DNA of 64,000 bases from an uncultured Chloroflexia bacterium (GCA_963833225.1 CAWHXD010000017.1:32001-96000), one strand, 5' to 3'. Positions 13,996-54,674 are shown, counted from the first letter of the stretch. The notes: generated from the letters alone by a model not told the origin. Made by a program: numbers and translations.

Positions 13996-14949
13996 TCATG
14001 CCCGCGGGTGCGAGCGGGCGTAGACCTCTCTGATCCTGGCCCCAGTCACGTGGGTGTACAGCTGGGTGGTCGCAATACTCGCATGTCCCAGCAGCTCCTG
14101 GACCACCCGCAGGTCAGCGCCACCCTCCAGGAGGTGGGTGGCAAAGGAGTGGCGGAGCGTGTGGGGCGACACGCGGTCCCCGAGCCCGGCCCTGCCGGCG
14201 GCGGCCCGGACCACCGTCCATGCTGTCTGCCGGCCCAGCCGGAGTCCGCGTGGGGTCACGAACAGTGGCGTCGCGGCGGCGTCCGTGCTCCCGGCTGCCG
14301 CCAGCCAGGCCGCGCGGGGCCAGGCGAGGTAACGCCCGATCCACTCGAGCGCCACGTCACCGACGGGGACCATGCGCTCCCGGTCGCCCTTCCCGATGAC
14401 CCGGACCCAGCCGTCGCCAGACAGGTGATCACGGTCCAGGCCAAGCGCCTCGGAGACGCGCAGGCCACCGGCGTAGAGCAGCTCCACGAGCGCCCGGTTG
14501 CGGACGGCGAGCCCGTCCGCGACGGTGGGCCCGGGTCCCCCGTCGGGCGGCGCCCCGCCGACGGCCTCCAGCAATCGGTCCACCTCCTCGATGCTGAGCG
14601 TCACCGGCAGCAGGCGGGGCTGCCGGGGCAGGTCGAGGTGCGAGGCGACGTCGATCTCGATCAGCCCGTCGCCGAAGGCAAACCGGTAGAAGCCGCGGAT
14701 CGACGCCGTCCGGCGCCGGAGGCTGGTGGGAGCGAGGCCCGGGTCGTGGGAGCGTCCACGCCGCGCCCGTGCCGCGAGGTACCGGTGGGCGACCTCCGGG
14801 CCGGCGGCCCAATCCCGGCTGGCACCGCGGCTCATCGCGAAGTCCGTGAGGTCGCCCCGGTAGGCCCGGATCGTGGCGTCCGCGACGCCGCGCTCGACCC
14901 GCAGGTAGGCCAGGTAGTCCTCGATCGCCCGGTCGAGGTCCGGCGTCAT
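13996..14949 (-). CDS. xerD: Site-specific tyrosine recombinase XerD
   Basis: [35 protein letters not shown]...TTQLYTH and HPRA; lies next to recN in a conserved context. Confidence 0.85.
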
Positions 14950-23088: not shown

Positions 23089-24315
23089 TCAGGAGGGCAG
23101 GGCGATCACGGAACGCGGGAACCGGGTCAGGCGCTCCACCACGCCCCGGGCGGCATCGAGGTGGATCAGGTCCTCGATCCGGACGCCGGTCACCCCGTCG
23201 AGATAGACGCCGGGCTCCACGGAGAACACGGTCGGACTGGGCAGCGGGTCGTCGGATGCGCGCCTGGACAGCGATGGCTCCTCGTGGGTCGCCAGGCCGA
23301 TCCCATGCCCGGTGCCGTGACCGAAGTGCGATCCGTGGCCGGCATCCGTGATCAGGTCACGCGCCGCGGCATCGGCGGCCCGGCCACCGACCAGGGCACC
23401 GTTCGCGACGGGCAGCCGCTCCACCGAGGCGGCGATGGCATCGATCGAGGCCTGCTGGGCACGCGCGACCAGGTCGTAGATCTCGAGGTCCCGGGGACGC
23501 GGCTCGCCCACGAACAGGGTCCGTGTCATGTCGCTCCGGTAGCCCTCCACCTGGGCGCCGAAGTCGAACAGGAGGACCTCCCCTGCCAGCACCGGCCGGT
23601 CACCCGGCGACCCGTGCGGCAGGGCGGCCTCGGGGCCGGCGAGGCAGGCGACGTTGAACGCGAGGGCCTCGGCACCACTGGTTCGCATGAGCCACTCGAG
23701 CCGGAGCGCAAGGTCGTGCTCGGTGACGCCGGGCCGGATCTCGGGGAGGAGGGCCGCGAGCGCCCGATCGGCGACCGCGCAGGCGGCCTCGATCCGCTCG
23801 ATCTCGTCGGGGGCCTTTCGCGCGCGCAGGGCCTCGACCCAGCCGTCGACCGCCACGAGCTCCACCTCGGGTGCCGCGGCGGCAAGGCGCGTCCAGAGGG
23901 CATGCGACGTTGCCGCGGCCTCGACCGCCACCCGGCGGGCGCCGGCACGGGCAACCAGCCGTGCCCAGTGCTCGGCCAGGTCATAGCCGATCTCCTCGAC
24001 CACCGCGTCCGGCGCCTCGCGGCGCGCCTGGAGCGTGTACCGGGAGTCCGTCACCAGCAGGACATCGTCGGGTCCCACCAGGAGCTGCCCGGAATGGCCG
24101 GCAACCTTGTCCTCGCCCTCGGCCAGCGTGAACCCGGTGAGCCACCGCATGTGCTCGGGCCGGAGGCCGAAGTAGGCGTCGACGCCGTCGCGCGCCATCC
24201 GCTCGCGCAGGAGCGCCAGGCGCCCCGGCTGCTGCGCGCGCTCCGCCTCGCGCCAGCGAGCGCGGGTGAGGGCATCCGGGGGCGGGGCGAAGTCGGACGG
24301 GACCGGCAGCGACAT
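23089..24315 (-). CDS. Xaa-Pro aminopeptidase (M24 family, YqhT/PepQ-like)
   Basis: TDSRY, LPHG, FDFGA..GYRSDMTRT, HGTGHGIGLATHE, SVEPGVY and GVRIED motifs; sits upstream of efp. Confidence 0.92.
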   Translation of the reverse strand: MSLPVPSDFAPPPDALTRARWREAERAQQPGRLALLRERMARDGVDAYFGLRPEHMRWLTGFTLAEGEDKVAGHSGQLLVGPDDVLLVTDSRYTLQARREAPDAVVEEIGYDLAEHWARLVARAGARRVAVEAAATSHALWTRLAAAAPEVELVAVDGWVEALRARKAPDEIERIEAACAVADRALAALLPEIRPGVTEHDLALRLEWLMRTSGAEALAFNVACLAGPEAALPHGSPGDRPVLAGEVLLFDFGAQVEGYRSDMTRTLFVGEPRPRDLEIYDLVARAQQASIDAIAASVERLPVANGALVGGRAADAAARDLITDAGHGSHFGHGTGHGIGLATHEEPSLSRRASDDPLPSPTVFSVEPGVYLDGVTGVRIEDLIHLDAARGVVERLTRFPRSVIALPS

Positions 24316-24317
24316 CG

Positions 24318-25706
24318 TCAGTTGCCGCCGTACTTCGCCACGTTGCGCTCGTGCTCCGCACGGGTCTTCGCGAACGCGCTCGAGCCAGAGCCGTCACCCT
24401 TGGCGATGAAGAACAGGTAGCCGGTCTTCGTGTCCGGGTTGAGCGCGGCCTCGATCGACGCGAGGGCGGGCGAGCAGATCGGCCCGGGAGGCAGGCCGGC
24501 GCTGGTGTAGGTGTTGTAGCCGGCCAGCTCGTCCGGCAGGGGCACCGGGAGCTGTTCCACCAGCGAATCCCAGAAGACGTACTTGGTCCACCCGGACAGC
24601 TTCATCGCGTCCAGCTGGAGGGTGTCGTTGGTGTAGAAGATCGTGGGATCGGACTGCAGCAGGCCCGTGGGCCACTTCTTGGGGTTGAGCCGGTTCTGGT
24701 AGACACCGGCGATCAGCGGGCGCTCCTCGTCGAGCACCGCCTCGCGCTCCACGATCGAGGCGAGCACCAGCACCTGGTAGAAGGTCAGCCCGCGGCTCTC
24801 CGGGACCTGGAGCCGCTCCTCGCCGACTCGATCGTAGAACGCGTTGAGCATCATCCGGATCAGGTCCTCGGCGCTCGTGGGCGCATCCGCATCGACCCGG
24901 ATCGTGTAGGTCGCCGGATACAGGAACCCCTCGAGGCTGGCTCCCTTGGGGCGGACGCTCTCGTCGATCAGCCACGGGTAGTCCGCGAGCAGCTCGTCGG
25001 GCGGGTTGAGCGCGATGTCGCGGAACGCCCTGGCGTCGACGGACGTGCCGTCGATGGTCAGGAGCTTGGCCACCATCTGCTCGATCCGGAGCCCCTCGCG
25101 GAACGTGATGTCGATCGTCCGGACCACGATCCGGTTCTCCACCAGGCCCTTGACGACCTCGGCCGGCGTCAGGTTGAGGGCCAGCGAGAAATCGCCCGCC
25201 TGGAGCTTGGGGGCGAGGCCATCCATGCGCGCCTGGAACAGGAACACCCGCTCCGACGTGATGATCTTCGCGCCCAGCAGGCGCGGTGCCAGCGTGGCGG
25301 GCGTGTCGCCCGACTCCACCGTGAACTCCACCACGCTGGGGTTCGTCCCGGCGGGCGCCGTGAGGGCGGGCCCCAGGTCCTCGCGCACGAGATCCTGGAT
25401 GAACCCGATGCGCAGGGCCGCCGGATTGTCCTCGGCGAGCGGAACGATGACCAGCCGTGCGATCGGGCGGGCAACGGTGAACAGGGCGACGAGGACGACG
25501 CCGGCCAGCACCAGCAGGAACACGATGAACCCCAGCAGCCCGGTCAGCCCGCCGCGCCGCTGGCCGTAGCGCTCGTACCGCCGCTGGTCGCCGGGACCCC
25601 GCCCGAAGCGTCCGGTCCGCCGGTAGCCGTTGGGCGCCGGACGGGCGGGCTCGGGAACCGGTGGGACGTAGTCCCCGCGCGGGCCACGTCCGCCCCGGAT
25701 GCTCAT
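24318..25706 (-). CDS. mltG: Endolytic transglycosylase MltG (YceG)
   Basis: N-terminal TM, LEGFLYPATY, LASIVEREA, VYQNRL, LQSDPT and YNTY..GLPPGPICSP motifs. Confidence 0.93.
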   Translation of the reverse strand: MSIRGGRGPRGDYVPPVPEPARPAPNGYRRTGRFGRGPGDQRRYERYGQRRGGLTGLLGFIVFLLVLAGVVLVALFTVARPIARLVIVPLAEDNPAALRIGFIQDLVREDLGPALTAPAGTNPSVVEFTVESGDTPATLAPRLLGAKIITSERVFLFQARMDGLAPKLQAGDFSLALNLTPAEVVKGLVENRIVVRTIDITFREGLRIEQMVAKLLTIDGTSVDARAFRDIALNPPDELLADYPWLIDESVRPKGASLEGFLYPATYTIRVDADAPTSAEDLIRMMLNAFYDRVGEERLQVPESRGLTFYQVLVLASIVEREAVLDEERPLIAGVYQNRLNPKKWPTGLLQSDPTIFYTNDTLQLDAMKLSGWTKYVFWDSLVEQLPVPLPDELAGYNTYTSAGLPPGPICSPALASIEAALNPDTKTGYLFFIAKGDGSGSSAFAKTRAEHERNVAKYGGN

Positions 25707-26215
25707 GCGTCCGTCCCCAATGGGCGCTCCGGCACGCGGGCCAAGCCCGTGAGGCCAGCCGCCTCTCGACGCGCGTCAAGCTCGTCCTGGAGGATGATGC
25801 TGGCGGCTTCGCGATCGATTCGCGCCCGGTGCGCATCGCGCTGCGTCCGAGACGGTGGGCCGCCCGATCGGCCGCGGGGCATCCGTCCCAGCCGCCGTTC
25901 GGCCTCGAACGATGACAGGCGTTCGTCGCGCAGGGTCACGGGGAGGTCGAGCCGGCTGGCAAGCTCCGAGGCCCAGGCGCGGGCGCCCGCCGCCATCTCG
26001 CCCTCGGTGCCACGGGCCTCGACCGGCAACCCGACGACCAGCTCGCGGACGTCCTGCTCCAGGCACACACGGCCGATCGTGTCGGCATCGGCCTGCGGCG
26101 TGTTTGACCGTCTCACCGTGGACAGGGGCCGGGCGATCCCAATGCCGGCGTCGGCGACGGCCAGGCCGATCCGTCGGGTGCCGAGGTCGACACCCAGGAT
26201 CCGGCTCACCGGCAC
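25703..26215 (-). CDS. ruvX: Pre-16S rRNA nuclease / Holliday junction resolvase-like RuvX (YqgF)
   Basis: ILGVDLGTRRIGLAVAD, VVGLP, DERLSS and IDREAASIILQ motifs. Confidence 0.93.
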   Translation of the reverse strand: MPVSRILGVDLGTRRIGLAVADAGIGIARPLSTVRRSNTPQADADTIGRVCLEQDVRELVVGLPVEARGTEGEMAAGARAWASELASRLDLPVTLRDERLSSFEAERRLGRMPRGRSGGPPSRTQRDAHRARIDREAASIILQDELDARREAAGLTGLARVPERPLGTDA

Positions 26216-26243: not shown

Positions 26244-28064
26244 TCAGCCGGATGGTACTGGCTGGGAGGGCGTCCCGTCGTCGGCCGGACCGGACGGCGA
26301 CGGCGCCGGCCGGATGGAGGGCAGGACCGGTTCGACGTCCGGCACCGCGTCGACGGCGTCCAGGACGGTCAGCGTCACGCGCGAATTGACCGTGGGAACG
26401 CTCGTGACCATGTCCGGCCAGAGCGCGATGGTCACATCCCCATACGGCTCCAGGAGGGCGCGTGCCTGGTCCGCCGGGAGCCCCATGACCTGCTGGCGGA
26501 GCCGCTCGCCGTCCACCGGCCGGACCTGCTTGGCGACACCGGCGACCGGGAACTCGATGACCCCGTGCCTGACGGTGCCCTCCCCGGCCGACACTTGCGT
26601 CGACCCCTCGACAAGATCCCAGCCCGGCGTGACCGAGTCCGCGAGCGCCCCGGCGGCGATGGCGTCGAGTGGCGACGCATCGACGGCGAGCACGGTCGCG
26701 GTCGCGGTGAGCCCCAGCTCGAATGTCTCGACCTCCACGTTGACGAGGCTCTCCGGATCGACCGTGGGTGTCGCCTCACCAAGGGTCGCCGTCTCCGGGA
26801 AGACCGTCGCCTCGGTGGGAACGCCGTCCGCGTTGTCCACCTGTGCCTCGAACTGCGCCTGCAGATCGACGGCCAGCGTGGCCAGCGCTTCGTCGACGTC
26901 CTTGCGGGAGATCCGGGTGAACTCCTCGCGAGTGCCACCGGTCGTCGGATCCGGATTGGACACCGTGACCAGGTTGCGATCGTAGCGTGCCGGCACGACC
27001 CGGATCCGTCCCGCCTCGACGTTGCCGTCTGGCCCCGGCTTGGCGGCCGTGACCGCGACCTCGGTCGTCTGGCACCTGATCGTCTGCACCGAGCCGCTGC
27101 CCGTGATCTGGGCGACGGGCAGGAACACGGACTCGTCGATCTCGAACTCGATGCCATCCGGCGTCTTGACAGAGGTCCCGGACGAGATCGTGTACGAGGC
27201 CGACGGATCGCAGTTCCGCCAGCGAACCACACCCGTCGCGCGGGTGGTCTCGACGCGCTTGCCCGTGGCCGGGAACTCCGTGGAGACCTCGACCGGGAGG
27301 TCCACCACCTGGGCGGGGATCACGAGCCTGTCCGCATCCACGGCGGTGGCAAGCGGATCCGCGGTGACGACGAGCTCCACGGGACCGACCGCCTCCACCC
27401 GTGGGGCGATGGTGATGTCGGCCGCCGGCAGGAACACGAACGCGGCCACGCCCGCCGCGCCCAGCGCGACCAGCAGGATCAGGACACCCGCCACGAGACC
27501 CGCGCCCGGAAGCCTGCGGGAGGGCCGGACCACGGGCACCTCGCGGCTGCGCCGGACGATCGCCTCAAGCTCGGCCTCGCGGTCAGCCGGGAGGCCTGCC
27601 GCCCCGTCGGCGATGCCGACCTCCTCCGCCGCCGCTGCCGGGGACGGATCGCGCGCCGTTCTGCGCTCCGCCTTATCCGACCCTGGGGACGAGCCCGCGG
27701 TCCGTGCGGCCGGCGCCGACCGAGCGGGCCGCTCCGTCACGTCGCCGGCCGGCGGGGTGTCCGTCGCGGGCTGCCCGGCTGCTGCCGATCCCTCGAGCGC
27801 GTCCTCGTACTCCCCGACCGACCCGAAGACCGGCAGTCCGGCCGACGCGGCCAGCGCCCTCGCGGACGCGTCAGGCGCCACGATGTCCAGCCGGCGCCCG
27901 TTCGCCATCGCCTCACGGGCGAGGAGCCGGAAGTTGATCCGCGACGTCGCGACGCGGGACCCGAACGGGATGACGATCGCCACCCGTGGGTCCGTCGCCT
28001 GGCGGATCCGGGCTGCCGCGGTCGTGATCTCGTCGTCGGGATCGAGGTAGATGATCGCCGCCAT
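26244..28064 (-). CDS. Single-pass membrane protein with a STAS-like N-terminal domain and a baseplate J/gp47-like extracytoplasmic domain
   Basis: N-terminus IYLDPDDEIT...INFRLLAREA...LAASAGLPV, an Ala/Pro linker, a TM (LVAGVLILLVALGAAGVAAFVFL), then baseplate-J-type motifs ATGVV, SGTSVKTPDGIEF, VAVTAAKPGPDGNVEAG and VSNPDPTTGG. Confidence 0.7.
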   Translation of the reverse strand: MAAIIYLDPDDEITTAAARIRQATDPRVAIVIPFGSRVATSRINFRLLAREAMANGRRLDIVAPDASARALAASAGLPVFGSVGEYEDALEGSAAAGQPATDTPPAGDVTERPARSAPAARTAGSSPGSDKAERRTARDPSPAAAAEEVGIADGAAGLPADREAELEAIVRRSREVPVVRPSRRLPGAGLVAGVLILLVALGAAGVAAFVFLPAADITIAPRVEAVGPVELVVTADPLATAVDADRLVIPAQVVDLPVEVSTEFPATGKRVETTRATGVVRWRNCDPSASYTISSGTSVKTPDGIEFEIDESVFLPVAQITGSGSVQTIRCQTTEVAVTAAKPGPDGNVEAGRIRVVPARYDRNLVTVSNPDPTTGGTREEFTRISRKDVDEALATLAVDLQAQFEAQVDNADGVPTEATVFPETATLGEATPTVDPESLVNVEVETFELGLTATATVLAVDASPLDAIAAGALADSVTPGWDLVEGSTQVSAGEGTVRHGVIEFPVAGVAKQVRPVDGERLRQQVMGLPADQARALLEPYGDVTIALWPDMVTSVPTVNSRVTLTVLDAVDAVPDVEPVLPSIRPAPSPSGPADDGTPSQPVPSG

Positions 28065-28072
28065 GGCCGGCG

Positions 28073-29335
28073 CTAGACCTTCATCGCCCGCAGGACCCGG
28101 CGCAGCGCGGTGTCGAGCGGGTCCTCGGATGTCTGGATCTCGATCGCCTGCCAGGCGAGCCCCAGGGGGGTCACGTCCTGCTGGTCCACGAGGAGGTCGG
28201 TGGCATCGCTGATGGCCTCGACCTGGGCGGGAGCCATCACCGACACCTCGGGCGGCCTGGCGAACGGGAGCTGCTTCCAGAACCGCTCCGCGCCCAGCGC
28301 AGCCCGGATCTCGGGCAGCCGGGACCCCCCGCCGCACAGCCAGATTCGCGACGGGAGCATCTCGCCGGCGGCCAGCTCTTCCATGACCAGCTCGACGCCC
28401 GCGGCCCAGACGGCGACGTCATCGCCCACGATGCCCGCGACGGCATCGTGCTCGTCGATCGCGAGCCCGCGCGCATAGTCCACCTTGAGCGCTTCCGCCC
28501 TCGGGAAGGGCAGGTCGAGGCGGTCGGCGATCGACTTGGTGAAAGCCCGGCCACCGAGCGCGAACATCCGGGTGCCCTCGATCCCGCCCTGGCGCACCAG
28601 TGCCACGTCCGTCGTCCCGCCCCCCACGTCCACGAACAGGGCGCCGGCCTGCCGGACCATCTCGGCCCCCAGCACCCGGGCCACCGCGTACGGCTCCGCC
28701 ACCACCTCGAGCAGCTCGAGGTCAAGCTGGCTGGCCACCGACTGGAGCGCTCCGAGATGGACCAGGGGCGCGAACGCATTGAAGATGCCGATCTTGACGT
28801 GGCGCCCCTGGAACCCGACCGGGTTGGACAGCGCATAGCCGTCGATCGAGGCCCCCACGATCGCGCTGTGGACGAGGCGGACGTCGACGTGGGGCAGCCC
28901 CGTCTCCCAGGTGATCGATCGTTCGGCCTCCTTGAGGGCCTCCCGCTGGACGCTGTCGATCAGCTTGACGAGCTCGCCGTCATTGACCGGCAGCTCCGGC
29001 CGCTTGCGCTCCTGCGTGAGCGTCGTCGTGAACCCCTTGACGAGCTCGCCGGCGATGCCGATGACGACCTGGGTCGGCCGGAAGCCGGCCATCTCCTCGG
29101 CCTCCTGGAGAGCGACCGAGCAGTTGTCCACGACCGCCGCGATGTCCGCGACGGTCCCTGACTGCATATGGGACAGGCCCTGTCGCTGGCGGCCGACACC
29201 GCGCACCGTCCCGTGGCCGGTCTCGTCGATCTCGAACACGAGCGCCTTGGCGAACTCGGTCCCGATGTCGAGCGCTGTGCACGCGGCGGGGATCGGGGTC
29301 TCATCGCGGTTCCAGAGGCGGCGGAGGAACGACAT
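28073..29335 (-). CDS. FtsA-like actin-family ATPase, not adjacent to ftsZ
   Basis: LDIGTEFAK (phosphate 1), SHS2-like insert with NPVGFQG, AEPYA, VDVGGGTTDVA (phosphate 2), GGRAFT, AEALK and LCGGGSRL (adenosine). Confidence 0.85.
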   Translation of the reverse strand: MSFLRRLWNRDETPIPAACTALDIGTEFAKALVFEIDETGHGTVRGVGRQRQGLSHMQSGTVADIAAVVDNCSVALQEAEEMAGFRPTQVVIGIAGELVKGFTTTLTQERKRPELPVNDGELVKLIDSVQREALKEAERSITWETGLPHVDVRLVHSAIVGASIDGYALSNPVGFQGRHVKIGIFNAFAPLVHLGALQSVASQLDLELLEVVAEPYAVARVLGAEMVRQAGALFVDVGGGTTDVALVRQGGIEGTRMFALGGRAFTKSIADRLDLPFPRAEALKVDYARGLAIDEHDAVAGIVGDDVAVWAAGVELVMEELAAGEMLPSRIWLCGGGSRLPEIRAALGAERFWKQLPFARPPEVSVMAPAQVEAISDATDLLVDQQDVTPLGLAWQAIEIQTSEDPLDTALRRVLRAMKV

Positions 29336-29370: not shown

Positions 29371-32172
29371 TCATCCGGGCCCCGCTTGCGCCGTGACGGC
29401 CGAGCGGACCGCCGCCAGCGCGTCACCCAGCCCCTCGCGACGGGACCCCTTCCCCTGGGCCATCTCCGCCCGACCGCCACCACGTCCATCGATCCTGGCC
29501 ACGGCCTGCTGGACGAGCGGCCCGGCCGCGATGCCACGGGCGACGAGGTCGTCGCTGACCGTCACGAACAGCTGCGGCTCGTCGGCGTCGAGCCCGACGG
29601 CGATCACCCCGCTGGGCAACGAGCCGCGGAGGTCCTTCGCGAACGCCTTGAGCGCGTCGATGGACTCCAGGTCCAGGACGGCGCCGACATACCTGACCCC
29701 GGCCCCCAGGTCCTCGGCCTTCGCCGCCAGGTCCCCGGGCCTCGGCCGCGTGCCACCCGTGCCCCCCGCCCGGAGGCGCCGCTTCGCCTCGCGCAGCTCG
29801 TCCTGGAGTGAGGCCACGCGCTCCTCGACGGCATCCGGGCCGCGGGCACCGACCGCCGCGACGGTTCGGTCGAGCGCCGCGAAGCGCTCGACCATCAGGG
29901 CATCCGCGGCGGCACCGGTGACCGCCTCGATCCGGCGCATCCCGGATCCGATGGATCGCTCGCCGGTGATGATGAAGTTGCCGACCTGCCCGGACGCGCG
30001 ACAGTGCGTCCCGCCGCACAGCTCGTGGGAGAAGCCGGCCACGCGGACGGTGCGCACCCGCTCGCCGTACTTCTCGTCGAAGAACGCGTCGGCGCCCGCG
30101 GCCTGCGCCTCTGCCATCGTCATCCACTCCACGCTCACCTCGCGGTCCTCGCGAACCACGCGCCGGACCTCGTCCTCGATGGCCCGCGTCTCCTCGTCGC
30201 TCAGCCCCCGCTCGAACGGGAAGTCAAACCGAAGGTAGTCCGGGTGGACCAGCGACCCCGCCTGGCGGGCGCGATCCCCCACCACGTTTCGGAGCGCGCG
30301 GTGGAGCAGGTGCGTCCCGGTGTGGTTGCGCATCGTGTGCGCCCGACGTGGCGCGTCCACCTCGCAGCGCAGGACGTCGCCGATCGCCACCCGGGCCCGG
30401 AGGAGGCCGCGATGCACGATCAGCCCCGCGCTCTGCGTCCCGGCCACGCGCTGGACATCGTCCACGTCGAACAGGAGGGCCCCGTCGGCGCCGCGCAGCC
30501 AGCCGATGTCACCGACCTGGCCGCCGCTCTCCGCGTAGAACGGCGTGCGGTCGAGCACGATCTCGGCGCGCGCGGCGGCCTCGGCGCGCAGCTCCACCTC
30601 GGGCACGGGCTCCAGCGTCTCGTACTCAGTGCCATCGCGCAGGATGGCGACCACGCGGGCGTCGCCGCTCGTGGCCTCGTAGCCAGTGAACTCGGTGGGC
30701 GCCGTGCGGGCGAGGACGTCCGCGTAGCGGGACGCGGCGAGGTTCGCCTCCGCCAGGCCGGACTTGGTGTGGGAGCGACTCCGCTGCCGCTGCTCGGCAA
30801 GCGCGTCCTGGAACCCGGCCAGGTCCGTCCGCACCCCGTACTCCGCGGCGAGCTCGACGGTGAGGTCGATCGGGAAGCCGTACGTGTCGTGGAGGCGGAA
30901 CGCGACGTCACCCGGGAGCACCGGGGCATCCGCCGGCAGGTGATCGGCCTGGCGGCCGACGGTGCGCGCCTCCGACGTCAGCGAGATCAGGGCATCCTCC
31001 AGGATCCCGACACCCGCCTCGAGCGTCCGGTTGAACTGGCGTTCCTCGCGCTCGATGACGCCCAGGACGTCGGCCCGGCGCTCGGCGAGGTGGGGATAGG
31101 CCCCGGCCATCGTCTCGATCACCACCTTGGCGGTCTCACCCAAGAACGGCTGGTGTCGACCGAGGAGCCGCCCGTGGCGGATCGCCCGGCGCATGATCCG
31201 GCGCAGCACGTAGCCGCGACCCTCGTTGGCGGGCCGGACGCCGTCGGCCACCAGGAACGTCACCGCCCGGCTGTGGTCGGCGATCACCTGGTAGCTGAAC
31301 CGCTCGGCCTCGAACGCGTCGGGGTCGCTGCCCAGCAGCTCGCGCATCCGCTCGTGGATCGGGGCGAACAGGTCGGTGTCGTAGTTGGTGCTCACGCCCT
31401 GGACCACGGACGCGATCCGCTCCAGACCCAGGCCCGTGTCCACGCCGGGGGCGGGAAGCGGCGTCAGCGAGCGATCCGGGTGCAGCTCGAACTCCATGAA
31501 CACGAGGTTCCAGACCTCGAGCCAGCGCGGGCAGTGTTCGCTGTGATCCGGGACGCAATCGGGACCCTCGGACAGGTGCGCGCCCCGGTCGTAGTGGATC
31601 TCCGAGCACGGGCCGGACGGTCCCACATCGCCCATCCGCCACCAGTTGGCCTCGTCGCCGGCCGGGAAGTCGCCCCAGCGCACGAGCCGGTCCTCGGTCA
31701 GACCAATCTCGTCCTTCCAGATGGCATGGGCGACATCGTCGGTCGTGTAGACCGTCGCCGCCAGCCGCTCCGCCGGGATCCCGAGGTCCCGGGTAAGGAA
31801 GTCCCAGGCCCAGTGGATGGCTTCGCGCTTGAAGTAGTCGCCAAAGCTCCAGTTGCCCAGCATCTCGAACAGGGTGTGGTGGCGCGGCGTGCGGCCGACC
31901 TCCTCGAAGTCGTTGTGCTTGCCCGCGACGCGCAGGCAGCGCTGGTAGTCCACGGCGCGCGTGTACTCGCGCTTCTCCACGCCCGTGAGCGCGTCCTTGA
32001 ACTGGACCATGCCGGAGTTGGTGAACAACAGCGTCTGGTCGCCGGCCGGCACAAGGCTCGCGCTGGGCACGACGGTGTGGCCGCGCTCGGCAAAGAACTC
32101 CACGAAGCGGCTGCGGATCTCGGCCGCGGACCGATACGGGATGACGGGACCGGACGGGGTGGGGCTGGACAT
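29371..32172 (-). CDS. alaS: Alanine--tRNA ligase
   Basis: LLFTNSGMVQFK, HHTLFEMLGNWSFGDYFK, GPCSEI, DTGLGLER and editing-domain NHTGTH/ELCGGTH motifs; ATG 32172. Confidence 0.98.
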   Translation of the reverse strand: MSSPTPSGPVIPYRSAAEIRSRFVEFFAERGHTVVPSASLVPAGDQTLLFTNSGMVQFKDALTGVEKREYTRAVDYQRCLRVAGKHNDFEEVGRTPRHHTLFEMLGNWSFGDYFKREAIHWAWDFLTRDLGIPAERLAATVYTTDDVAHAIWKDEIGLTEDRLVRWGDFPAGDEANWWRMGDVGPSGPCSEIHYDRGAHLSEGPDCVPDHSEHCPRWLEVWNLVFMEFELHPDRSLTPLPAPGVDTGLGLERIASVVQGVSTNYDTDLFAPIHERMRELLGSDPDAFEAERFSYQVIADHSRAVTFLVADGVRPANEGRGYVLRRIMRRAIRHGRLLGRHQPFLGETAKVVIETMAGAYPHLAERRADVLGVIEREERQFNRTLEAGVGILEDALISLTSEARTVGRQADHLPADAPVLPGDVAFRLHDTYGFPIDLTVELAAEYGVRTDLAGFQDALAEQRQRSRSHTKSGLAEANLAASRYADVLARTAPTEFTGYEATSGDARVVAILRDGTEYETLEPVPEVELRAEAAARAEIVLDRTPFYAESGGQVGDIGWLRGADGALLFDVDDVQRVAGTQSAGLIVHRGLLRARVAIGDVLRCEVDAPRRAHTMRNHTGTHLLHRALRNVVGDRARQAGSLVHPDYLRFDFPFERGLSDEETRAIEDEVRRVVREDREVSVEWMTMAEAQAAGADAFFDEKYGERVRTVRVAGFSHELCGGTHCRASGQVGNFIITGERSIGSGMRRIEAVTGAAADALMVERFAALDRTVAAVGARGPDAVEERVASLQDELREAKRRLRAGGTGGTRPRPGDLAAKAEDLGAGVRYVGAVLDLESIDALKAFAKDLRGSLPSGVIAVGLDADEPQLFVTVSDDLVARGIAAGPLVQQAVARIDGRGGGRAEMAQGKGSRREGLGDALAAVRSAVTAQAGPG

Positions 32173-32269
32173 CGGCGCAATGGTACCGAACGAGCGATGG
32201 TCGAACGGCCCGCTGCCAGAGATCCTCGCGCTGCCGGGGACCGCCGGGTCCCCCGCGCGCGCCTCGAGA

Positions 32270-32491
32270 CTAGGGCTGCTTCTCGCTGTCGTCGCGGCGC
32301 CGGCGCACCAGGGCGGCTCCGGCCACGGCGGCGCCAACCAGGGCACCCGCGATGAGGCCCCCCAGGAAGCGCCTGGACCGGTCGCTCTCGCCGCCGAGGA
32401 GATCGGCCAGGTCGGCCAGTCCACCAAGGGGCCGGGGATCACGCCGCGGGGTCACGGCCGGGTCGTCCGCGTGCTCGTCCTTGCCTGCCAA
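32270..32491 (-). CDS. Small membrane-anchored hypothetical protein with a YtxH-like Gly-rich helix
   Basis: RRFLGGLIAGALVGAAVAGAALVRRRR; TTG start 5 nt after the upstream stop; start uncertain. Confidence 0.45.
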   Translation of the reverse strand: MAGKDEHADDPAVTPRRDPRPLGGLADLADLLGGESDRSRRFLGGLIAGALVGAAVAGAALVRRRRDDSEKQP

Positions 32492-38651: not shown

Positions 38652-41033
<2,382 letters not shown>

Positions 41034-41115
41034 CGTGTCTCCAGTGTCGGGCGCGACCGTCGCACGAGGGGTCCGGCGTGGCCGGCTCGGAGGAACGGCC
41101 GCGCTGGAGCCGAGG

Positions 41116-42984
41116 TCACCGCTTCTCGGGGCTCCCCACGAAGCGCAGGCCAAGCTCCTGGAGCTGCTCCTCGTCCGGCACCGACGGGGCCTCGAGCATC
41201 AGGTCCGAGCCGGACTGGGTCTTGGGGAACGCCATGACCTCGCGGATGTTGGTCTGGTAGCTGAGGAGCGCCGCCCAGCGGTCCACGCCGAGCGCGATGC
41301 CGCCGTGCGGTGGAGCCCCGTACTCGAAGGCGTCGAGCATGGCGCCGAAGCGCTCCTTCATCTGGGCAAGCGTATAGCCCTGCAGGTTGAAGCTGCGGGC
41401 GAGGAGACCCGGCTTCCAGATCCGCACCGAGCCACCGCCCAGCTCCCAGCCGTTGAGCGCGAGGTCGTACTGCATCGCCCGGGCCCGGCCCGCGGGATCC
41501 TCGGGTGAGCGGACGTCAAGATCGCCCGAGACCGTGGTCAGCAACGGCTCGTCCTCGGGAACGACACCGCTGAACGGGTTGTGGGTCGCGTCCCAGCGGC
41601 CGAACGGCTCGTCCCACTGGTACATCGGGAAGTGGTTGATCCAGCAGTAGGCAAGCTCGTCCGGATCGGCGAGCGCGAGGCGCCCGCCAAGCTCCACGCG
41701 CAGGCGTCCCAGGACGTCGTTGACCGTCTCACCCCGGTCGGCGACGACCAGGACCAGGTCGCCATCGGCCGCGCCGGCGGCCGCCCTCACGGCGGCCCGT
41801 GTCGTGGCGGACAGGAACTTGGCGATCGGCCCGTGCAGCTCGCCGCCCGCCTGGACCGCGAGATGGACCAGGCCCTTCGCGCCAAGCCGCTTGGCCAGCT
41901 CGGCCAGCTCGTCGATCTCGCGCCGCGTCGCCCCGCCCATGCCGGGCACGGTGATCCCCTTCACGCGACCGCCCGCGATCAGCGTCTCGTCGAACACCCG
42001 GAACCCGGACGCACCCGCACCGTCCGCGCCGGTGAGAGCCGGGGCCAGGTCGAACAGCTCCATCGCGAACCGCAGGTCCGGCTTGTCCGAGCCGAACCGT
42101 TCCATCGCGTCCTCGTACTCGAACACCGGGAACGGGACCTGGCGGATCTTCCGCCCGGGAACCGTCGCCGTGGTGACCTCGATCGCCATCCGCTCGATGA
42201 AGGCCATCAGCGTCGCCTCGTCCACGAAGCTCATCTCGAGGTCGAGCTGCGTGAACTCGGGCTGGCGGTCGCCGCGCAGGTCCTCGTCGCGGAAGCAGCG
42301 CGCGATCTGGAAGTAGCGGTCGATGCCCCCGACCATGAGCAGCTGCTTGAGCTGCTGCGGGCTCTGCGGCAGGGCGTAGACGGTGCCCGGCTGGAGCCGG
42401 CTCGGGACGATGAAGTCCCGCGCGCCCTCGGGGGTGCTCTTGATCAGGTTGGGGGTCTCGACCTCCACGAACCCGGCCGCGTGGTGGACCTCGCGGATCG
42501 CCTGCACGAGACGGCTGCGCAGGAGCAGGCGCTGCTGCATCGCCTCGCGCCGGATGTCCAGGTAGCGGTACTTGAGCCGCAGCGTCTCGTCGATCGGGGC
42601 GTCGGGGTCGTTGACGTAGAACGGCGGCGTCTTCGACTCGTTGAGGATGGTGACCCGGCGGGCCTGGAGCTCGATCGCGCCCGTCGCGAGCCTGGCGTTC
42701 TCCTGGCCCGCCTCCCGCAACGCGACGATGCCCTCCACCACGACCACGAACTCGGTGCGGACGCGGGAGGCCTCCTCGTGCGCAGCCGGAGCGTCGGCCG
42801 CATCGACCACGACCTGCGTGATGCCGTAGCGATCACGAAGGTCGATGAAGATCAGCTTGCCGTAGTCACGGCGGCGGTGGACCCAGCCGGCGAGCGTCGC
42901 GTTCGAGCCCGCGTCGTCCGCGCGAAGGTCCCCACTCGTGTGGGTGCGATACGACGTGGCGAGGCTGAACGGTTCGGCGGGCAC
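41116..42984 (-). CDS. aspS: Aspartate--tRNA ligase
   Basis: GWVHRRRDYG, FIDLRD, STPEGARDF, ALPQSPQ, RCFRDEDLR and GAPPHGGIALG motifs. Confidence 0.97.
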   Translation of the reverse strand: MPAEPFSLATSYRTHTSGDLRADDAGSNATLAGWVHRRRDYGKLIFIDLRDRYGITQVVVDAADAPAAHEEASRVRTEFVVVVEGIVALREAGQENARLATGAIELQARRVTILNESKTPPFYVNDPDAPIDETLRLKYRYLDIRREAMQQRLLLRSRLVQAIREVHHAAGFVEVETPNLIKSTPEGARDFIVPSRLQPGTVYALPQSPQQLKQLLMVGGIDRYFQIARCFRDEDLRGDRQPEFTQLDLEMSFVDEATLMAFIERMAIEVTTATVPGRKIRQVPFPVFEYEDAMERFGSDKPDLRFAMELFDLAPALTGADGAGASGFRVFDETLIAGGRVKGITVPGMGGATRREIDELAELAKRLGAKGLVHLAVQAGGELHGPIAKFLSATTRAAVRAAAGAADGDLVLVVADRGETVNDVLGRLRVELGGRLALADPDELAYCWINHFPMYQWDEPFGRWDATHNPFSGVVPEDEPLLTTVSGDLDVRSPEDPAGRARAMQYDLALNGWELGGGSVRIWKPGLLARSFNLQGYTLAQMKERFGAMLDAFEYGAPPHGGIALGVDRWAALLSYQTNIREVMAFPKTQSGSDLMLEAPSVPDEEQLQELGLRFVGSPEKR

Positions 42985-43035: not shown

Positions 43036-45141
43036 TCATCGGGCGGCCGCGGGCGTCCGGAGATCCATCTCCTCGAGCCAGCGCAGGAGGAGATGGTGCA
43101 CGGCCGGCGCACCGACCAGCCGCTCCGCCGGCGGCGGCAGCTCGGATGGATGGAGCACGAAGGCCTCGGTCTGGGCTCCGCCCAGGCCGCCGTGCGAGCC
43201 GACCAGCTCCTCGAACGCCGCGACCTCGCCGGTCTCGGCGTCGAGCATCGACACGACGACGAGGTCGCCCACGCAGTCGAACCCGTCGAGGCGGCGCAGT
43301 GACGGCTCCGCGAGCGGACCGAACCGCCCGAGCGGGTCCTCTCCCTCAACCCGCCCGGTCGCCAGGTGGCGCAGCCCGCCGCCGCCCAGGACCACCGGTC
43401 CGTCCGCCTCGGAGCGAACCATCACGAGGCCCACGCCCGGGTGCGACGCGAGGGCCTCCACCAGCCCGCGATGACGGTCCTCGAGCTCCTCCCACGTCAT
43501 CCGCCCGGGCGTCTCGGTGACGTAGATGTTGGCCAGGTTCCCGGACGCCGCGACGACCACGTCGTGCTCGCCGGCCCGGCCGGTGGCCTCGACCTCGCGG
43601 GCCTCGGTCTCGCCCGTCGTGTGCATCCGGCGACGGGCCAGCCTCGCCCCCCGCCCCTCCCCGCCGGCCAGCTGCGTGAGCACCGTGTTGAGGTAGCCCC
43701 AGCCCTCCACGTCGGACGTCGCGGCGAGCATCGCCGGCTCCCCGGCCATCAGGCGCCGGACCAGCTCGTCGAGGGTGGTCCCGTAGCGCTGGAGGAAGGT
43801 CGCCCCCTGGCTCTGCCCGTGGTCGGACAGGACCACGATCCGGTAGGGGCGAGGTGTCGCGGCCGCCGCCCGTTCCAGGAGGCCGATCTGCCGGTCGGCC
43901 TCGGCGATCTCGTTGAGCGCCTCGGAACGCTCAGGCCCGGCGTGATGGGCGACCTCGTCGTAGCCCACGAGGTCGACGTAGATGACCGGTACGCCACGGT
44001 GCATGTCCTCGAGCACCAGGCCGATCGACAGGTCCCGGAGCACGATGCAGGCGGCCGCCCGCAGCAGCGGGAACGGCCACCGGCGGGACGTCCGCGGCTC
44101 GAGCCCGCGAAGCCGCTGGGCGCGGGCTTCGAGCAGCTCGCGGGCAACCTCCATGGTGACCAGGACCAGCGTCCTGAACACCGTTGACGGGTCGGCGAAG
44201 AATCCGAAGAAGTCGCGACTCCTGATGCCCTGCCGGCCCAGCAGTGTCGAGGTGGTGAGCACGCTTCGCGTCGCATCCCCGGACAGCAGGTTTGCGACCG
44301 ACGATCCACCGTGGGCGAGGAGTCCGCTCCCCGTGGACACGCGCCGCTCGATCTCGGCCGCATCGGCGGGGCGGTTGGAGACGAGCAGTCGCCCGGTCGG
44401 CTTCTCGAACCATCGGAACGCCGGGATGTTGCCGTTGTCGCCGTGGAGGATGCCCGCCTGGGAAGCGGACGTCTGCGAGGGCAGCAGGACCGACCAGGGC
44501 GTGACCCGGTGGGAGCCCGACCGCACCCAGCGGGCCATGTGCGGAGCGTTGCCGGTCCGGATCGCAAACCGCAGCAGTGGCTCCGCGAGGCCGTCAACCT
44601 GGACGATGACCAGCCCGGGTGGCATCGATCCCGGCTCGGCGGGCCCCTTGCGAACCAGCTCCAGCACCACGGAGCGGTACCACGAGTCCGCCCAGTCCAA
44701 GTCCAGCACGAACCCCAGGACGAGGTTCACTACCGCGAGGTACAGCGAGAGCACGAACGCCCACAGGAAGGAGCCGACCTCGAACCCGGGCAGCAGCTGC
44801 GCGACCAGCCCGATCATCAGCCCGTTGATGAGCAGCGACAGCAGTCCGAACGTGAGGACCGCGTAGCGGACCAGGAACCGGATGACGATGGGCCGGACGA
44901 GCGCGTTCGCGGCGCTGATCCCCACGACCGCCACGACGAGGCTCGGCGGGTCGTGGAACTGGACCGGCTCGAAGATCCAGGCGACGGCGGCCAGCGCGAG
45001 GCCGTCCGCCAGCCAGGTCAGGAGGACGTAGCGGACTAGCCGGGAGCGGTCCTGCCGCCACTCGCCGGCGACACGCAGGTTGGCCCGCCAGAAGGCGGCG
45101 AGGTCACGGAGCCACTGTCGGGCGAGGGCCAGGACCCGCAT
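43036..45141 (-). CDS. Fusion of a 4-TM holin-like (YvlD/DUF360) domain and an alkaline-phosphatase-superfamily domain
   Basis: NALVRP...LTFGLLSLLING, followed by QVDGL, PSQT, YDEVAHH, SDHGQ and GSHGG. Confidence 0.8.
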   Translation of the reverse strand: MRVLALARQWLRDLAAFWRANLRVAGEWRQDRSRLVRYVLLTWLADGLALAAVAWIFEPVQFHDPPSLVVAVVGISAANALVRPIVIRFLVRYAVLTFGLLSLLINGLMIGLVAQLLPGFEVGSFLWAFVLSLYLAVVNLVLGFVLDLDWADSWYRSVVLELVRKGPAEPGSMPPGLVIVQVDGLAEPLLRFAIRTGNAPHMARWVRSGSHRVTPWSVLLPSQTSASQAGILHGDNGNIPAFRWFEKPTGRLLVSNRPADAAEIERRVSTGSGLLAHGGSSVANLLSGDATRSVLTTSTLLGRQGIRSRDFFGFFADPSTVFRTLVLVTMEVARELLEARAQRLRGLEPRTSRRWPFPLLRAAACIVLRDLSIGLVLEDMHRGVPVIYVDLVGYDEVAHHAGPERSEALNEIAEADRQIGLLERAAAATPRPYRIVVLSDHGQSQGATFLQRYGTTLDELVRRLMAGEPAMLAATSDVEGWGYLNTVLTQLAGGEGRGARLARRRMHTTGETEAREVEATGRAGEHDVVVAASGNLANIYVTETPGRMTWEELEDRHRGLVEALASHPGVGLVMVRSEADGPVVLGGGGLRHLATGRVEGEDPLGRFGPLAEPSLRRLDGFDCVGDLVVVSMLDAETGEVAAFEELVGSHGGLGGAQTEAFVLHPSELPPPAERLVGAPAVHHLLLRWLEEMDLRTPAAAR

Positions 45142-53523: not shown

Positions 53524-54674
53524 GCCGCTCCCCCACCCCGCCCGGCGACCCGGACGAGCCTGGACACGGTGCGACCAAGGGCGTAGCGCCACGGGCGTGC
53601 CACGTGCTCGTGCGCGCCCGCCAGGGCGACCCACGCCGCGCCGAACGAGCGCTTGTGCTCGTACAGGCCGAACGTCGGTTCGCCTTCGAGCGGGATCCGG
53701 CGCGCGCCGGGCGTGTCCACCCCGCCGAGATCCATCTCGGTCCGGCCCTCCGCCAGCGCGAGCTGGATCGCCCGCCAGCGCAGCAGGTGCATCGCCCCGG
53801 GATGGTCCCGGCGCCGCTCCGCGCGGTCGGCGGAGTGGACCGTCGAGAGCCGCCCGCCGTGCCGGTACAGCACCAGCCCCGCGAGCACATCGCCATCGGC
53901 GGCGCCCTCGCGGGCCTCCAGGTAGACCAGGTGTCCCGCCGCCAGCGCCCGTCGCCACCAGGAGGTGAACTCGGCCGGACCGGCGAAGCCGAAGCCACGC
54001 CGCTCGCCGGTGGCGCGCAGCAGGCCATAGAAGCGATCCAGCGCCGGCCCGGCGTCCTCGTGGGGCGCGACCGTGCGGTCTCCATCCCACGGGCCGGCAT
54101 CGTGCTGGACCACGACCACCCGGTCGCGCTCGGCGCGGCGGATGCGCTGGCGGGTGGCCTTGGCGATGCCGTCGAACACCGCGGCCTCATCGGCGGCGAG
54201 GCTGAGCGCCATCCGGTGCCGCGACGGCTGGATCTCGTCGATCGCGTGGAACCCACCCGACGCGAGCGCCGCCTGGTAGGACGTGTCGTCCGCGGCGACC
54301 TCCGGGTCGGCGGCCAGGACATCGATCCCGTCCGCCGTCAGGTGCGCAGCGACCGCCGCGATCGCCCCGCCGACCACGGCTCCGGCGCCGGGCACCGCGC
54401 CCGCCCCATCGAACGACCAGGCCACGGCCTGGCCCACCGGCCCCCGCGGCGCGTAGGCCGATCCACCACCGACCAGCGGCCAACGACGCACGAGGACGAG
54501 CGTCCGCGTCTCGCCGACCGCGAGAAACCGCGGCATCCAGCCGCCCGTGCGCCGGTGCTCGGCCCAGGCCCGCGACTGGAGGACATGGCCGCCGGGGACG
54601 TCGACGGCACCCGCGTCCCAATCGGCGAGCGCCGCGCCCTCGAGCTCGGTGACGGGCATCGTGGCCGCCGTCAC
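53520..54674 (-). CDS. FemABX-family peptidoglycan bridge aminoacyltransferase (second copy)
   Basis: HVLQSRAWA, YAPRGP, IQP, TRQRIRRA, LLRWRAI, DLGG and LYEHKRSFG motifs. Confidence 0.85.
   Translation of the reverse strand: MTAATMPVTELEGAALADWDAGAVDVPGGHVLQSRAWAEHRRTGGWMPRFLAVGETRTLVLVRRWPLVGGGSAYAPRGPVGQAVAWSFDGAGAVPGAGAVVGGAIAAVAAHLTADGIDVLAADPEVAADDTSYQAALASGGFHAIDEIQPSRHRMALSLAADEAAVFDGIAKATRQRIRRAERDRVVVVQHDAGPWDGDRTVAPHEDAGPALDRFYGLLRATGERRGFGFAGPAEFTSWWRRALAAGHLVYLEAREGAADGDVLAGLVLYRHGGRLSTVHSADRAERRRDHPGAMHLLRWRAIQLALAEGRTEMDLGGVDTPGARRIPLEGEPTFGLYEHKRSFGAAWVALAGAHEHVARPWRYALGRTVSRLVRVAGRGGGAA

Follow-up and report, generated by a model that had tools for sequence, protein, structure and literature searches.

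We analysed a window of 64,000 nucleotides (nt) from an uncultured Chloroflexia bacterium (GCA_963833225.1, CAWHXD010000017.1:32001-96000; source assembly of 3.89 Mb in 20 contigs, 86% complete), with a G+C content ranging from 69 to 75%, and focus on two adjacent minus-strand genes lying between alaS and ruvX-mltG, i.e. gene A (28073..29335, minus strand), encoding an FtsA-like actin-fold ATPase of 420 amino acids (P0001), and gene B (26244..28064, minus strand), encoding a bitopic membrane protein of 606 amino acids (P0003). With slightly better than even confidence, our comparisons support a reading according to which the pair is an envelope module of Chloroflexota, chromosomal and passed on vertically, in which a membrane-tethered FtsA paralogue would be coupled via the cytoplasmic head of B to a wall-facing ectodomain acting with MltG.

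Organisation of the alaS-A-B-ruvX-mltG locus

The gene order on the minus strand is iscS-like, mnmA, alaS, gene A, gene B, ruvX, mltG (YceG), M24 peptidase, efp and xseA. Spacings are tight from alaS onwards, with 35 nt separating alaS from A and 28 nt separating B from ruvX, an overlap of 4 nt between ruvX and mltG and 2 nt between mltG and the peptidase gene. The TAG stop codon of gene A is followed by exactly 8 nt and then by the ATG of gene B at 28064; a two-gene pair with an 8-nt gap between alaS and ruvX-mltG, as described in an original prediction made from the sequence of the window, is thereby confirmed from the coordinates of the open reading frames (ORFs). Promoter and terminator scans revealed no signals above chance for the operon and no terminator-like site between the genes from alaS to the peptidase gene. 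Because of these tight spacings and the lack of terminator-like sites between the genes, we infer that alaS-A-B-ruvX-mltG-peptidase forms one operon. Among the sequencing runs listed for this sequence, none is of RNA, and those of DNA all contain small shares of it. The G+C content at third codon positions is 0.93 in gene A and 0.89 in gene B, a coding-type pattern, and both genes are under purifying selection.

The alanyl-tRNA synthetase gene alaS (29371..32442, minus strand) shows matches to Pfam tRNA-synt_2c (603 bits), tRNA_SAD and DHHA1; its coordinates represent the longest ORF, the true start probably being near 32120 since the Pfam match starts only at ORF residue 108. Downstream of the pair, ruvX (25703..26215, minus strand; Pfam RuvX 116.6 bits) encodes a YqgF-type putative Holliday junction resolvase or pre-16S nuclease, and mltG (24318..25706, minus strand) encodes a YceG-family lytic transglycosylase of 462 amino acids with the Pfam YceG match (220.5 bits) at residues 128-458 and an N-terminal extension of about 127 amino acids. 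The last gene of the tight run codes for a PepP-like M24 aminopeptidase (23089..24315, minus strand; Pfam Peptidase_M24 and Creatinase_N).

Gene A encodes a paralogue of divisome FtsA

Gene A matches the Pfam FtsA model PF14450 with 56 bits and the NCBIfam ftsA model TIGR01174 with 98.4 bits, the latter score being under the equivalog cut-off of 175.85. It scores 29 bits against the PilM model TIGR01175 (cut-off 133) and 32 bits against the MreB model, and its score against the EutJ model is also far under that for FtsA. The closest solved structures are FtsA chains (7q6f_A, 1e-13), two PilM chains being found at 6e-5 and 9e-3. Profile alignment of gene A with four canonical Chloroflexota FtsA proteins (hhalign) covers 355 columns with 99.75% probability and is unbroken across the SHS2/1C region (FtsA residues 82-160); Pfam SHS2_FTSA gave no match in P0001 or 120 relatives. 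Over the full length, gene A is 25% identical to the FtsA of its own genome, with identities to canonical FtsA ranging from 21 to 25%. The three actin-fold ATPase motifs that had been noted in the original prediction, i.e. phosphate-1 (LDIGT), phosphate-2 (DVGGGTTD) and adenosine (CGGGS), are all present and invariant in 15 of 15 orthologues, the invariant residues being D23, G25 and T26, D236, G238 and G239, and G335-G337.

FtsA has a C-terminal membrane-targeting helix. No transmembrane (TM) segment was found in gene A, and the top 11-residue hydrophobic moment of the protein (0.87) falls into its last 15 residues (residues 406-420; 28076..28120, minus strand), a segment conserved among the orthologues and putatively amphipathic; canonical Chloroflexota FtsA proteins end in a basic-hydrophobic segment as well. 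The gene A protein therefore probably sits on the inner membrane face via this C-terminal amphipathic helix, acting as a candidate membrane-targeting sequence.

The same genome encodes a canonical FtsA. The division cluster on contig C8 reads mraY-murD-ftsW...ddl-ftsQ-DUF1290-ftsA-UPF0047-ftsZ (the DUF1290 gene lying between ftsQ and ftsA and the UPF0047 gene between ftsA and ftsZ; L139, G000:C8:399000-418999), and its FtsA of 409 amino acids reaches 407.5 bits against TIGR01174 and 96.9 bits against Pfam SHS2_FTSA. All five other genomes tested likewise contain a canonical FtsA plus an FtsA-like gene scoring 95-114 bits, four of the canonical proteins scoring 397-449 bits and the fifth, which is cut by a contig end, 238.7 bits. 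A quick, unrooted IQ-TREE phylogeny of 29 rows, built without PilM or EutJ reference rows, places 16 FtsA-like proteins (support of 97 in the Shimodaira-Hasegawa-like approximate likelihood ratio test, SH-aLRT) and six canonical FtsA proteins (99) into separate sister clades with long stems, the seven MreB rows standing apart from both. Because the genome possesses a canonical ftsQ-ftsA-ftsZ cluster elsewhere, gene A, located between alaS and ruvX without linkage to ftsZ or ftsQ and belonging to its own clade, is a paralogue and not the divisome FtsA, in agreement with the second FtsA paralogue that had been proposed. Judged by profiles and phylogeny, gene A descends from the same stock as FtsA, yet it falls outside FtsA by score, linkage and orthology.

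The weak similarity to PilM suggests an alternative in which the pair, built like PilM-PilN, is the assembly platform of a machine for pilus formation, secretion or competence, with the actin-like protein clamping the cytoplasmic portion of its bitopic partner. An actin-superfamily protein of the cytoplasm encoded side by side with a single-pass partner is indeed common to gene A-B, PilM-PilN and MreB-RodZ. However, gene A scores 98 bits for FtsA versus 29 bits for PilM, neither the 52 ORFs scanned in the window nor the related loci under comparison contain a PilN, PilO, PilP, PilQ, secretin, pilin or traffic ATPase, and the partner, with 606 amino acids and a large ectodomain, is unlike PilN, rendering such a platform very improbable. 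The pair differs from MreB-RodZ by the weak MreB score of gene A, by the presence of two separate MreB genes in the genome (L003:982-2193 and L004:691-2166 on contigs C6 and C14) and by the head of gene B, which matches no Pfam family and hence has no RodZ-type helix-turn-helix domain. The two MreB ORFs comprise 403 and 491 amino acids with the MreB domain beginning at residues 62 and 161, reflecting either N-terminal extensions or over-called starts in high-GC sequence.

Gene B encodes a bitopic protein with a predicted barrel in its ectodomain

Hydrophobicity analysis of gene B (Kyte-Doolittle, 19-residue windows) shows a peak of 2.85, and residues 187-212 (27429..27506, minus strand) form the only segment above 1.6, representing a single TM helix. 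An Arg-rich stretch preceding this helix points to an N-in orientation. The resulting layout, which had been proposed before and is seen in our sequence analysis, comprises a cytoplasmic head (residues 1-92; 27789..28064, minus strand), a low-complexity Ala/Arg/Pro-rich linker (residues 93-186; 27507..27788, minus strand; A 24%, R 14%, P 12%), the TM helix, an extracytoplasmic domain constituting the conserved family unit of about 350 amino acids (residues 213-570; 26355..27428, minus strand; defined by the family profile) and a Pro/Ser-rich C-terminal tail (residues 571-606; 26247..26354, minus strand; P 27%).

The head is predicted to be an alpha/beta domain with an alternating beta-alpha pattern, it is present in a single copy in the genome and it has no significant match in Pfam or in the PDB. 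An assignment as ubiquitin-like was rejected, the match being repeat-driven with no stretch significant alone, and a match to Chap-C remained under the cut-off. The Pfam scan of gene B detected neither a PASTA repeat nor a kinase domain.

Within the ectodomain, residues 270-426 (26787..27257, minus strand) match Pfam Baseplate_J PF04865 with 33.1 bits, above the gathering cut-off of 21.1, the match covering only profile positions 17-158 of 255; the PHROG 6 profile (baseplate wedge) is matched with 44 bits, and PF04865 is detected at E<=0.01 in 48 of 55 family members. Compared to the PDB, the ectodomain profile matches chains of the baseplate J, gp47 and 'Triplex 1' types over about 100 residues (9g8s_C, 1e-5; 9euf_C, 4e-5; 9ki1_H, 4e-3). 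Alignment with 16 true baseplate J proteins from tail clusters of the phylum (hhalign) is confined to 40 columns (66.5% probability, E 5e-5), centred on the motif G..GNV...N..P..GG, which is invariant in both the ectodomain and the true baseplate J families; invariant residues of the barrel region are N348, N370, G376, G377 and D389. Outside the barrel region, the ectodomain showed no match to known families. By these profile matches, one sub-domain of the ectodomain is predicted to be a baseplate-J-type barrel, extending over about 100-150 of the 606 residues. The likeness of gene B thus stays short of a wedge protein's length, and the description of gene B as a domesticated baseplate J was overstated, the likeness spanning about 100 residues to solved chains and 40 columns to the baseplate J family of the genome's own tail cluster.

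Gene B contains cysteines at positions 285 and 331, as had been noted. Of 55 aligned relatives, 27 possess both, as do only 2 of the 30 more diverse ones, so the pair of cysteines is confined to part of the family and appears lineage-specific, which would fit a lineage-specific disulfide.

GlxA, the Streptomyces radical copper oxidase, is a membrane-tethered extracytoplasmic protein acting on surface glycan. Gene B resembles its beta-barrel in a weak match to PF21110 (20.2 bits, cut-off 27) shared by 12 of 55 family members; it differs by this score lying under the threshold, by lacking a copper-oxidase domain and by an E value of 0.26 for the GlxA chains in the PDB.

The contractile-tail cluster of the genome lies elsewhere

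The Baseplate_J and PHROG 6 matches, together with the presence of a tail-like cluster in the genome, bring up the possibility that the pair is a remnant or an anchor of a phage tail or of an extracellular contractile injection system (eCIS). The cluster, located on contig C8 (646000-660000; L138, G000), is complete-looking and eCIS-like, comprising sheath, tube, an unknown protein of 672 amino acids, a second tube, a VgrG-like spike, gp25, a Baseplate_J protein of 648 amino acids and Tail_P2_I. As the real tail cluster of the genome with its own baseplate J lies on another contig, gene B is not part of a tail. Across 201 Chloroflexota genomes, one per species (up to three of the genomes behind the phylum counts in this work, G038, G145 and G173, are unpublished, and related genomes are not independent), the baseplate J family of the tail cluster is patchy, being found in 27, with 2 of 7 genomes in taxonomic family f1 and 0 of 12 in f3. 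Gene B and the eCIS baseplate J show no pattern of co-occurrence across genomes, as is seen in family f3 with gene B in 10 of 12 genomes and the eCIS baseplate J in none of the 12.

A tblastn search with the ectodomain against 50,697 phage records gave no match, no close relatives of it were found in IMG/VR, and neither gp25, Tail_P2_I, spike, tube nor sheath genes occur near B in the window or in 20 other loci compared by tblastn with the window proteins. These results and an inheritance that follows the taxonomic family uphold the earlier claim that the pair is not phage-borne. Gene B shares with wedge proteins of the baseplate J/gp47/T4 gp6 type (PF04865) the one predicted barrel sub-domain with its motif; it differs by the short extent of this likeness, by its TM anchor, by its neighbours and by phylum-wide synteny. 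On these comparisons, gene B does not pass as a baseplate wedge protein in homology length, neighbours or solubility, and an origin of the pair as a tail or eCIS remnant is already largely refuted and highly improbable. A role as a defence system was rejected for lack of a PADLOC match.

Downstream of the tail genes on contig C8 a zinc-ribbon protein is encoded and, on the opposite strand, a large AAA/STAND-like ATPase.

Distribution and linkage to mltG across Chloroflexota

Relatives of gene B were detected in 106 of 201 genomes with P0003 as query and in 142 with the full-length ectodomain profile (A3). Presence is nearly all-or-none by taxonomic family, the ectodomain being found in 7/7 genomes of f1, 13/13 of f9, 10/10 of f20 and 11/11 of f23 and being absent from f16 (0/12), f19 (0/8) and f25 (0/6). 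Searching 1.84 billion cluster representatives with the ectodomain profile returned 17,233 matches at E<=1e-3, with true baseplate proteins to be expected among the weaker ones, and 5,867 at E<=1e-30; the best 150 representatives all match over the whole of about 350 profile positions.

Gene A orthologues are present in 61 of 201 genomes at scores of at least 162 bits, the next matches, at about 74-82 bits, being taken as canonical FtsA. In all 61 genomes (60 of 60 without the unpublished G173) gene B lies immediately downstream on the same strand; 56 of these adjacencies were read from search coordinates and five were confirmed on fetched sequence (G075, G155, G181, G199 and G172), and two of the 61 are cut by contig ends (G172 and G079). 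Several complete genomes of the sample, e.g. G111 and G138, carry the pair. In 81 further genomes (142 minus 61) the gene B family occurs without gene A, and alaS directly adjoins gene B in 9 of 20 compared loci. The co-conservation that had been proposed thus holds in one direction, gene A never being found without gene B, and does not hold in the other. Since gene A never occurs without B, while many lineages have B alone, gene A seems to add an accessory layer, cytoskeletal or regulatory, to a system centred on B.

A search by alignment with gene A gave 80 loci at 73-96% identity, nearly all from Chloroflexota, and the closest homologues of the pair are from Chloroflexota of Limnocylindria type. 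In the ectodomain tree, all ten rows without gene A fall into one clade (SH-aLRT 95), which also holds the two rows with the most divergent gene A. Presence and absence of gene A require three changes on this tree, the starred branches leaving a single change possible; the trees are unrooted and do not give the order of events. Because the main groups of the ectodomain tree agree with those of the FtsA-like tree, the data fit a co-inherited pair from which gene A was lost later.

Gene B is tied to the mltG neighbourhood. In 19 of 20 loci (each up to 20 kb and from other families, compared by tblastn with the window proteins) it directly precedes ruvX-mltG, the lone exception being a contig of 11.7 kb, and alaS stands on the far side of gene B in 16 of 20; in one locus (L055) gene B was detected by protein and profile searches and not in this tblastn comparison. 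On the basis of printed coordinates compared by eye, with G038 and G173 left out, 84 of 93 genomes have an ectodomain gene upstream of mltG on the same strand, at a distance of no more than about 2 kb. MltG itself was detected in 179 of the 201 genomes. The 20 MltG-negative genomes that were listed are all small (1.1-2.4 Mb), and not one of them is ectodomain-positive. The survey of the 201 genomes is thus in line with the chromosomal, mltG-linked pair of the original prediction.

The position could nevertheless be incidental, the pair serving a membrane process that has nothing to do with peptidoglycan or MltG. Examples would be the anchoring of a sheath or surface layer, the export of lipids or polysaccharides, or functions that ruvX or alaS would connect with the chromosome or the ribosome. 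This would be in accordance with alaS-ruvX-mltG existing without an insert: the slot is empty in G091 (f16) and G064 (f6), both with the order alaS-ruvX-mltG-efp, and G106, G046 and G133 keep iscS-mnmA-alaS-ruvX-mltG-pepP without both A and B, with an alaS-ruvX gap of about 50-180 nt. It would also accommodate the ectodomain family being missing from 37 MltG-positive genomes (179 minus 142), the paralogues and the homologue in family f13 being located elsewhere, and the fast evolution of the ectodomain, as in surface-exposed proteins. Against it, the place before ruvX-mltG is kept in 84 of 93 genomes from divergent families in which ectodomain identity is down to 25-30%, and the ectodomain family occurs in none of the listed genomes lacking MltG. 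We consider an incidental position unlikely.

The loci of G106, G046 and G133 (L192, L193 and L194) represent natural 'deletion' lineages; G106 and G046 belong to one genus, G133 has a genome of 1.2 Mb, and all three are from the window's own class. With A and B both gone from an otherwise preserved gene order, they document a co-loss of the two genes and support the view that A and B are inherited and lost as a unit.

Selection and co-variation point to the cytoplasmic parts

Compared to the nearest relative (L058), the ratio of non-synonymous to synonymous substitution rates is 0.04 for gene A, 0.13 for the head, 0.61 for the linker, 0.21 for the TM helix plus ectodomain and 0.31 for the tail, the two cytoplasmic parts, gene A and the head, being the most constrained portions of the pair. 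Pairwise distances among 14 genomes correlate with r 0.87 between A and head and with r 0.50 between A and ectodomain. The partial correlation of A and head given the ectodomain is 0.82, equalled in 0 of 2000 permutations, the converse partial correlation being -0.13. At matched ectodomain divergence, the ratio of head to ectodomain identity amounts to 1.34-1.56 in genomes with A and, without A, to 0.90-1.09 in bins of at least 8 pairs and to 1.43 in one bin of 4 pairs. This co-variation is suggestive of a coupling between A and the head of B.

Kinase fusions suggest a reusable wall-facing module

Genome G111 encodes three tandem paralogues with the arrangement Pkinase-TM-ectodomain and two with head-TM-ectodomain; its locus L145 (G111:C1:2332000-2350500) is a tandem array of membrane proteins, three carrying an N-terminal Ser/Thr kinase and one a small head. 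Genomes of family f23 contain 3-9 ectodomain profile matches each, and in a Chloroflexota kinase cluster of the Atlas 50% of the members carry Baseplate_J. Fused forms were also sought among proteins of 1062-3030 amino acids and none was found there, the kinase fusions being shorter. As the same ectodomain is fused to kinases in G111 and the Atlas cluster independently combines kinases with Baseplate_J, it is, judged from domain architecture, a reusable outward-facing unit, located where PASTA repeats sit in PknB-type kinases. Being fused to kinases, the ectodomain may, as these architectures suggest, more generally serve as a wall-facing sensor module.

These fusions also form the basis of another explanation, in which gene B is a transmembrane sensor whose ectodomain senses a wall fragment, a lipid-linked precursor or a surface polymer and whose head relays the signal inwards together with the FtsA-like ATPase. 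Such a pathway would resemble that of the PASTA kinases (PknB, PrkA, IreK), with which gene B shares a wall-facing ectodomain behind one TM helix and whose PASTA repeats are replaced by the gene B-type ectodomain on Hanks-type kinases of one Chloroflexota family. ReoM/IreB is reportedly a kinase substrate; gene B differs here in that its putative cytoplasmic partner is an actin-fold ATPase and not a phosphoprotein. One study describes that the PASTA kinase IreK of Enterococcus faecalis phosphorylates the cytoplasmic segment of MltG (PMC12369325), and, according to the locus tags in a second one, the B. subtilis ireB/reoM homologue yrzL (BSU27400) adjoins yrrK/ruvX (BSU27390) near yrrL/mltG (BSU27370) (PMC3814617). 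The alaS-ruvX slot would accordingly be used for wall regulators in another phylum, which is an analogy and not evidence.

A sensor faces the difficulties that the head contains no recognisable signalling fold, that gene B lacks a kinase domain and PASTA repeats, and that scanning of 52 window ORFs revealed neither a kinase nor a phosphatase nor a response regulator next to the pair. Moreover, FtsA-type ATPases are not known to act as signalling outputs. PASTA domains are present in 115 of 201 genomes, the genome of the window included, and a complementarity of PASTA and ectodomain was rejected, the two overlapping in f1, f3, f13, f20 and f23 and not in f7, f9, f22 and f26 without any pattern. 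We hold this sensor to be rather unlikely, although it overlaps with the envelope module proposed here and differs from it mainly in A signalling instead of polymerising.

A model for an FtsA-like envelope module acting with MltG

We favour a model according to which gene B is the core of the envelope module, connecting the wall zone with the cytoplasm across the membrane and being made together with MltG. The FtsA-like protein would bind the cytoplasmic head of B, and its ATP-dependent self-association would cluster, position or regulate B, whose ectodomain would contact peptidoglycan or the wall machinery and thereby place or gate the glycan-strand terminase MltG co-transcribed with the pair. 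B would also be able to work without A. The proposed logic is that of FtsA-FtsN, MreB-RodZ or PilM-PilN, and the analogy to an actin homologue with a bitopic partner drawn in the original prediction fits the anatomy of the pair.

FtsN possesses a short cytoplasmic tail plus a SPOR domain. With FtsA-FtsN the pair has in common the FtsA domain order of gene A, its conserved ATP motifs, its C-terminal amphipathic segment and the pairing with a bitopic protein having a cytoplasmic N-terminus. It differs in that gene A shows 21-25% identity, a TIGR01174 score under the cut-off and no Pfam SHS2_FTSA match, in that it coexists with a true FtsA and does not stand beside ftsZ or ftsQ, and in that gene B carries a folded head of about 90 amino acids plus an ectodomain of 350 amino acids.

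Several points weigh against this model. The binding of A to B, the binding of A to the membrane, its polymerisation and an effect on MltG are inferred from sequence. The synteny may reflect only the old alaS-ruvX-mltG operon offering a convenient insertion slot, and alaS and ruvX are not wall genes. In 9 of 93 genomes (G012, G037, G061, G085, G103, G147, G158, G166 and G171) B does not share a contig with mltG, some of these cases being contig breaks, and the f13 homologue of gene B is not located at mltG. From the 37 MltG-positive genomes without the ectodomain family it follows that MltG does not need this family, and the loss of the pair in three close relatives implies that it is dispensable there. 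The comparisons of distance and conservation use related sequences and a near-saturated ectodomain as control, and since two slowly evolving cytoplasmic parts would correlate anyway, the co-variation of A and head is a hint only. Finally, PASTA proteins coexist with the ectodomain in many genomes, and therefore the ectodomain is not a simple replacement of PASTA.

A full-text search of one literature library revealed no description of the pair or of the ectodomain family. Public entries name relatives of gene B 'baseplate J/gp47 family protein' or 'hypothetical' and relatives of gene A 'cell division FtsA domain-containing protein', and it is misleading to annotate these genes as coding for a phage baseplate or for the divisome FtsA. 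The pair is a known arrangement, an actin-like ATPase with a bitopic partner, with an uncharacterised and very large ectodomain family. Our genome comparisons show this family to be a chromosomal core gene, linked to mltG and optionally accompanied by a dedicated FtsA paralogue, and not phage-derived cargo. Chloroflexota are frequent in soils, sediments and wastewater, and their wall growth and division have been little studied. Should the coupling proposed here be real, it would add a new actin-plus-bitopic pair beside FtsA-FtsN, MreB-RodZ and PilM-PilN and provide a handle on the positioning or regulation of MltG outside the model phyla.

Going further, Chloroflexota and possibly Patescibacteria might possess, in addition to FtsA and MreB, a third actin-type system associated with the membrane, in which the FtsA paralogue would assemble on the head of B and the baseplate-barrel ectodomain, reused as a kinase sensor, would read the wall and control where MltG ends glycan strands, the pair being ancestral and the ATPase having been lost in one large clade. 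This extended version is speculative and, in our estimation, has a fairly low probability. For the similar pairs in Patescibacteria mentioned in the original prediction, language-model look-alikes of both proteins (Atlas) in Saccharimonadota, Peregrinibacteriota and Minisyncoccota are a lead only.

Further features of the window

The original prediction had further stated that no phage gene occurs in the 64 kb. This holds for sheath, tube, spike and baseplate genes, none of which was found among the 52 ORFs scanned, and does not hold for one recombinase of the Phage_integrase family. This tyrosine recombinase (13996-14949, minus strand; Phage_integrase plus SAM-like N domain) is neighboured by a RecN-like SMC_N gene, an NAD kinase gene, an FtsJ/TlyA-type methyltransferase gene and dxs, and by this context it looks like a chromosomal XerC/D and not like a prophage integrase. 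A 701-amino-acid ORF (43036-45141, minus strand) combines a Phage_holin_4_2 domain with four TM segments (residues 39-141) with a type I phosphodiesterase/nucleotide pyrophosphatase-like region, an unusual fusion in the housekeeping context between hisS and aspS.

Further wall genes of the window lie about 25 kb from the pair, i.e. a Mur ligase ORF of 736 amino acids (51880-54090, minus strand), whose ligase domains begin only near residue 245 owing to a long N-terminal extension or an over-called start, and near it a gene for a MurJ flippase (55762-57612, minus strand). An ORF of 833 amino acids (38652-41153, minus strand) with ABC_tran, SMC_N-like and zinc-finger-like (DnaJ_CXXCXGXG) signals possibly encodes a UvrA-type paralogue. 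Rfam and ARAGORN scans gave one tRNA-Pro, far from the pair, as the sole match.

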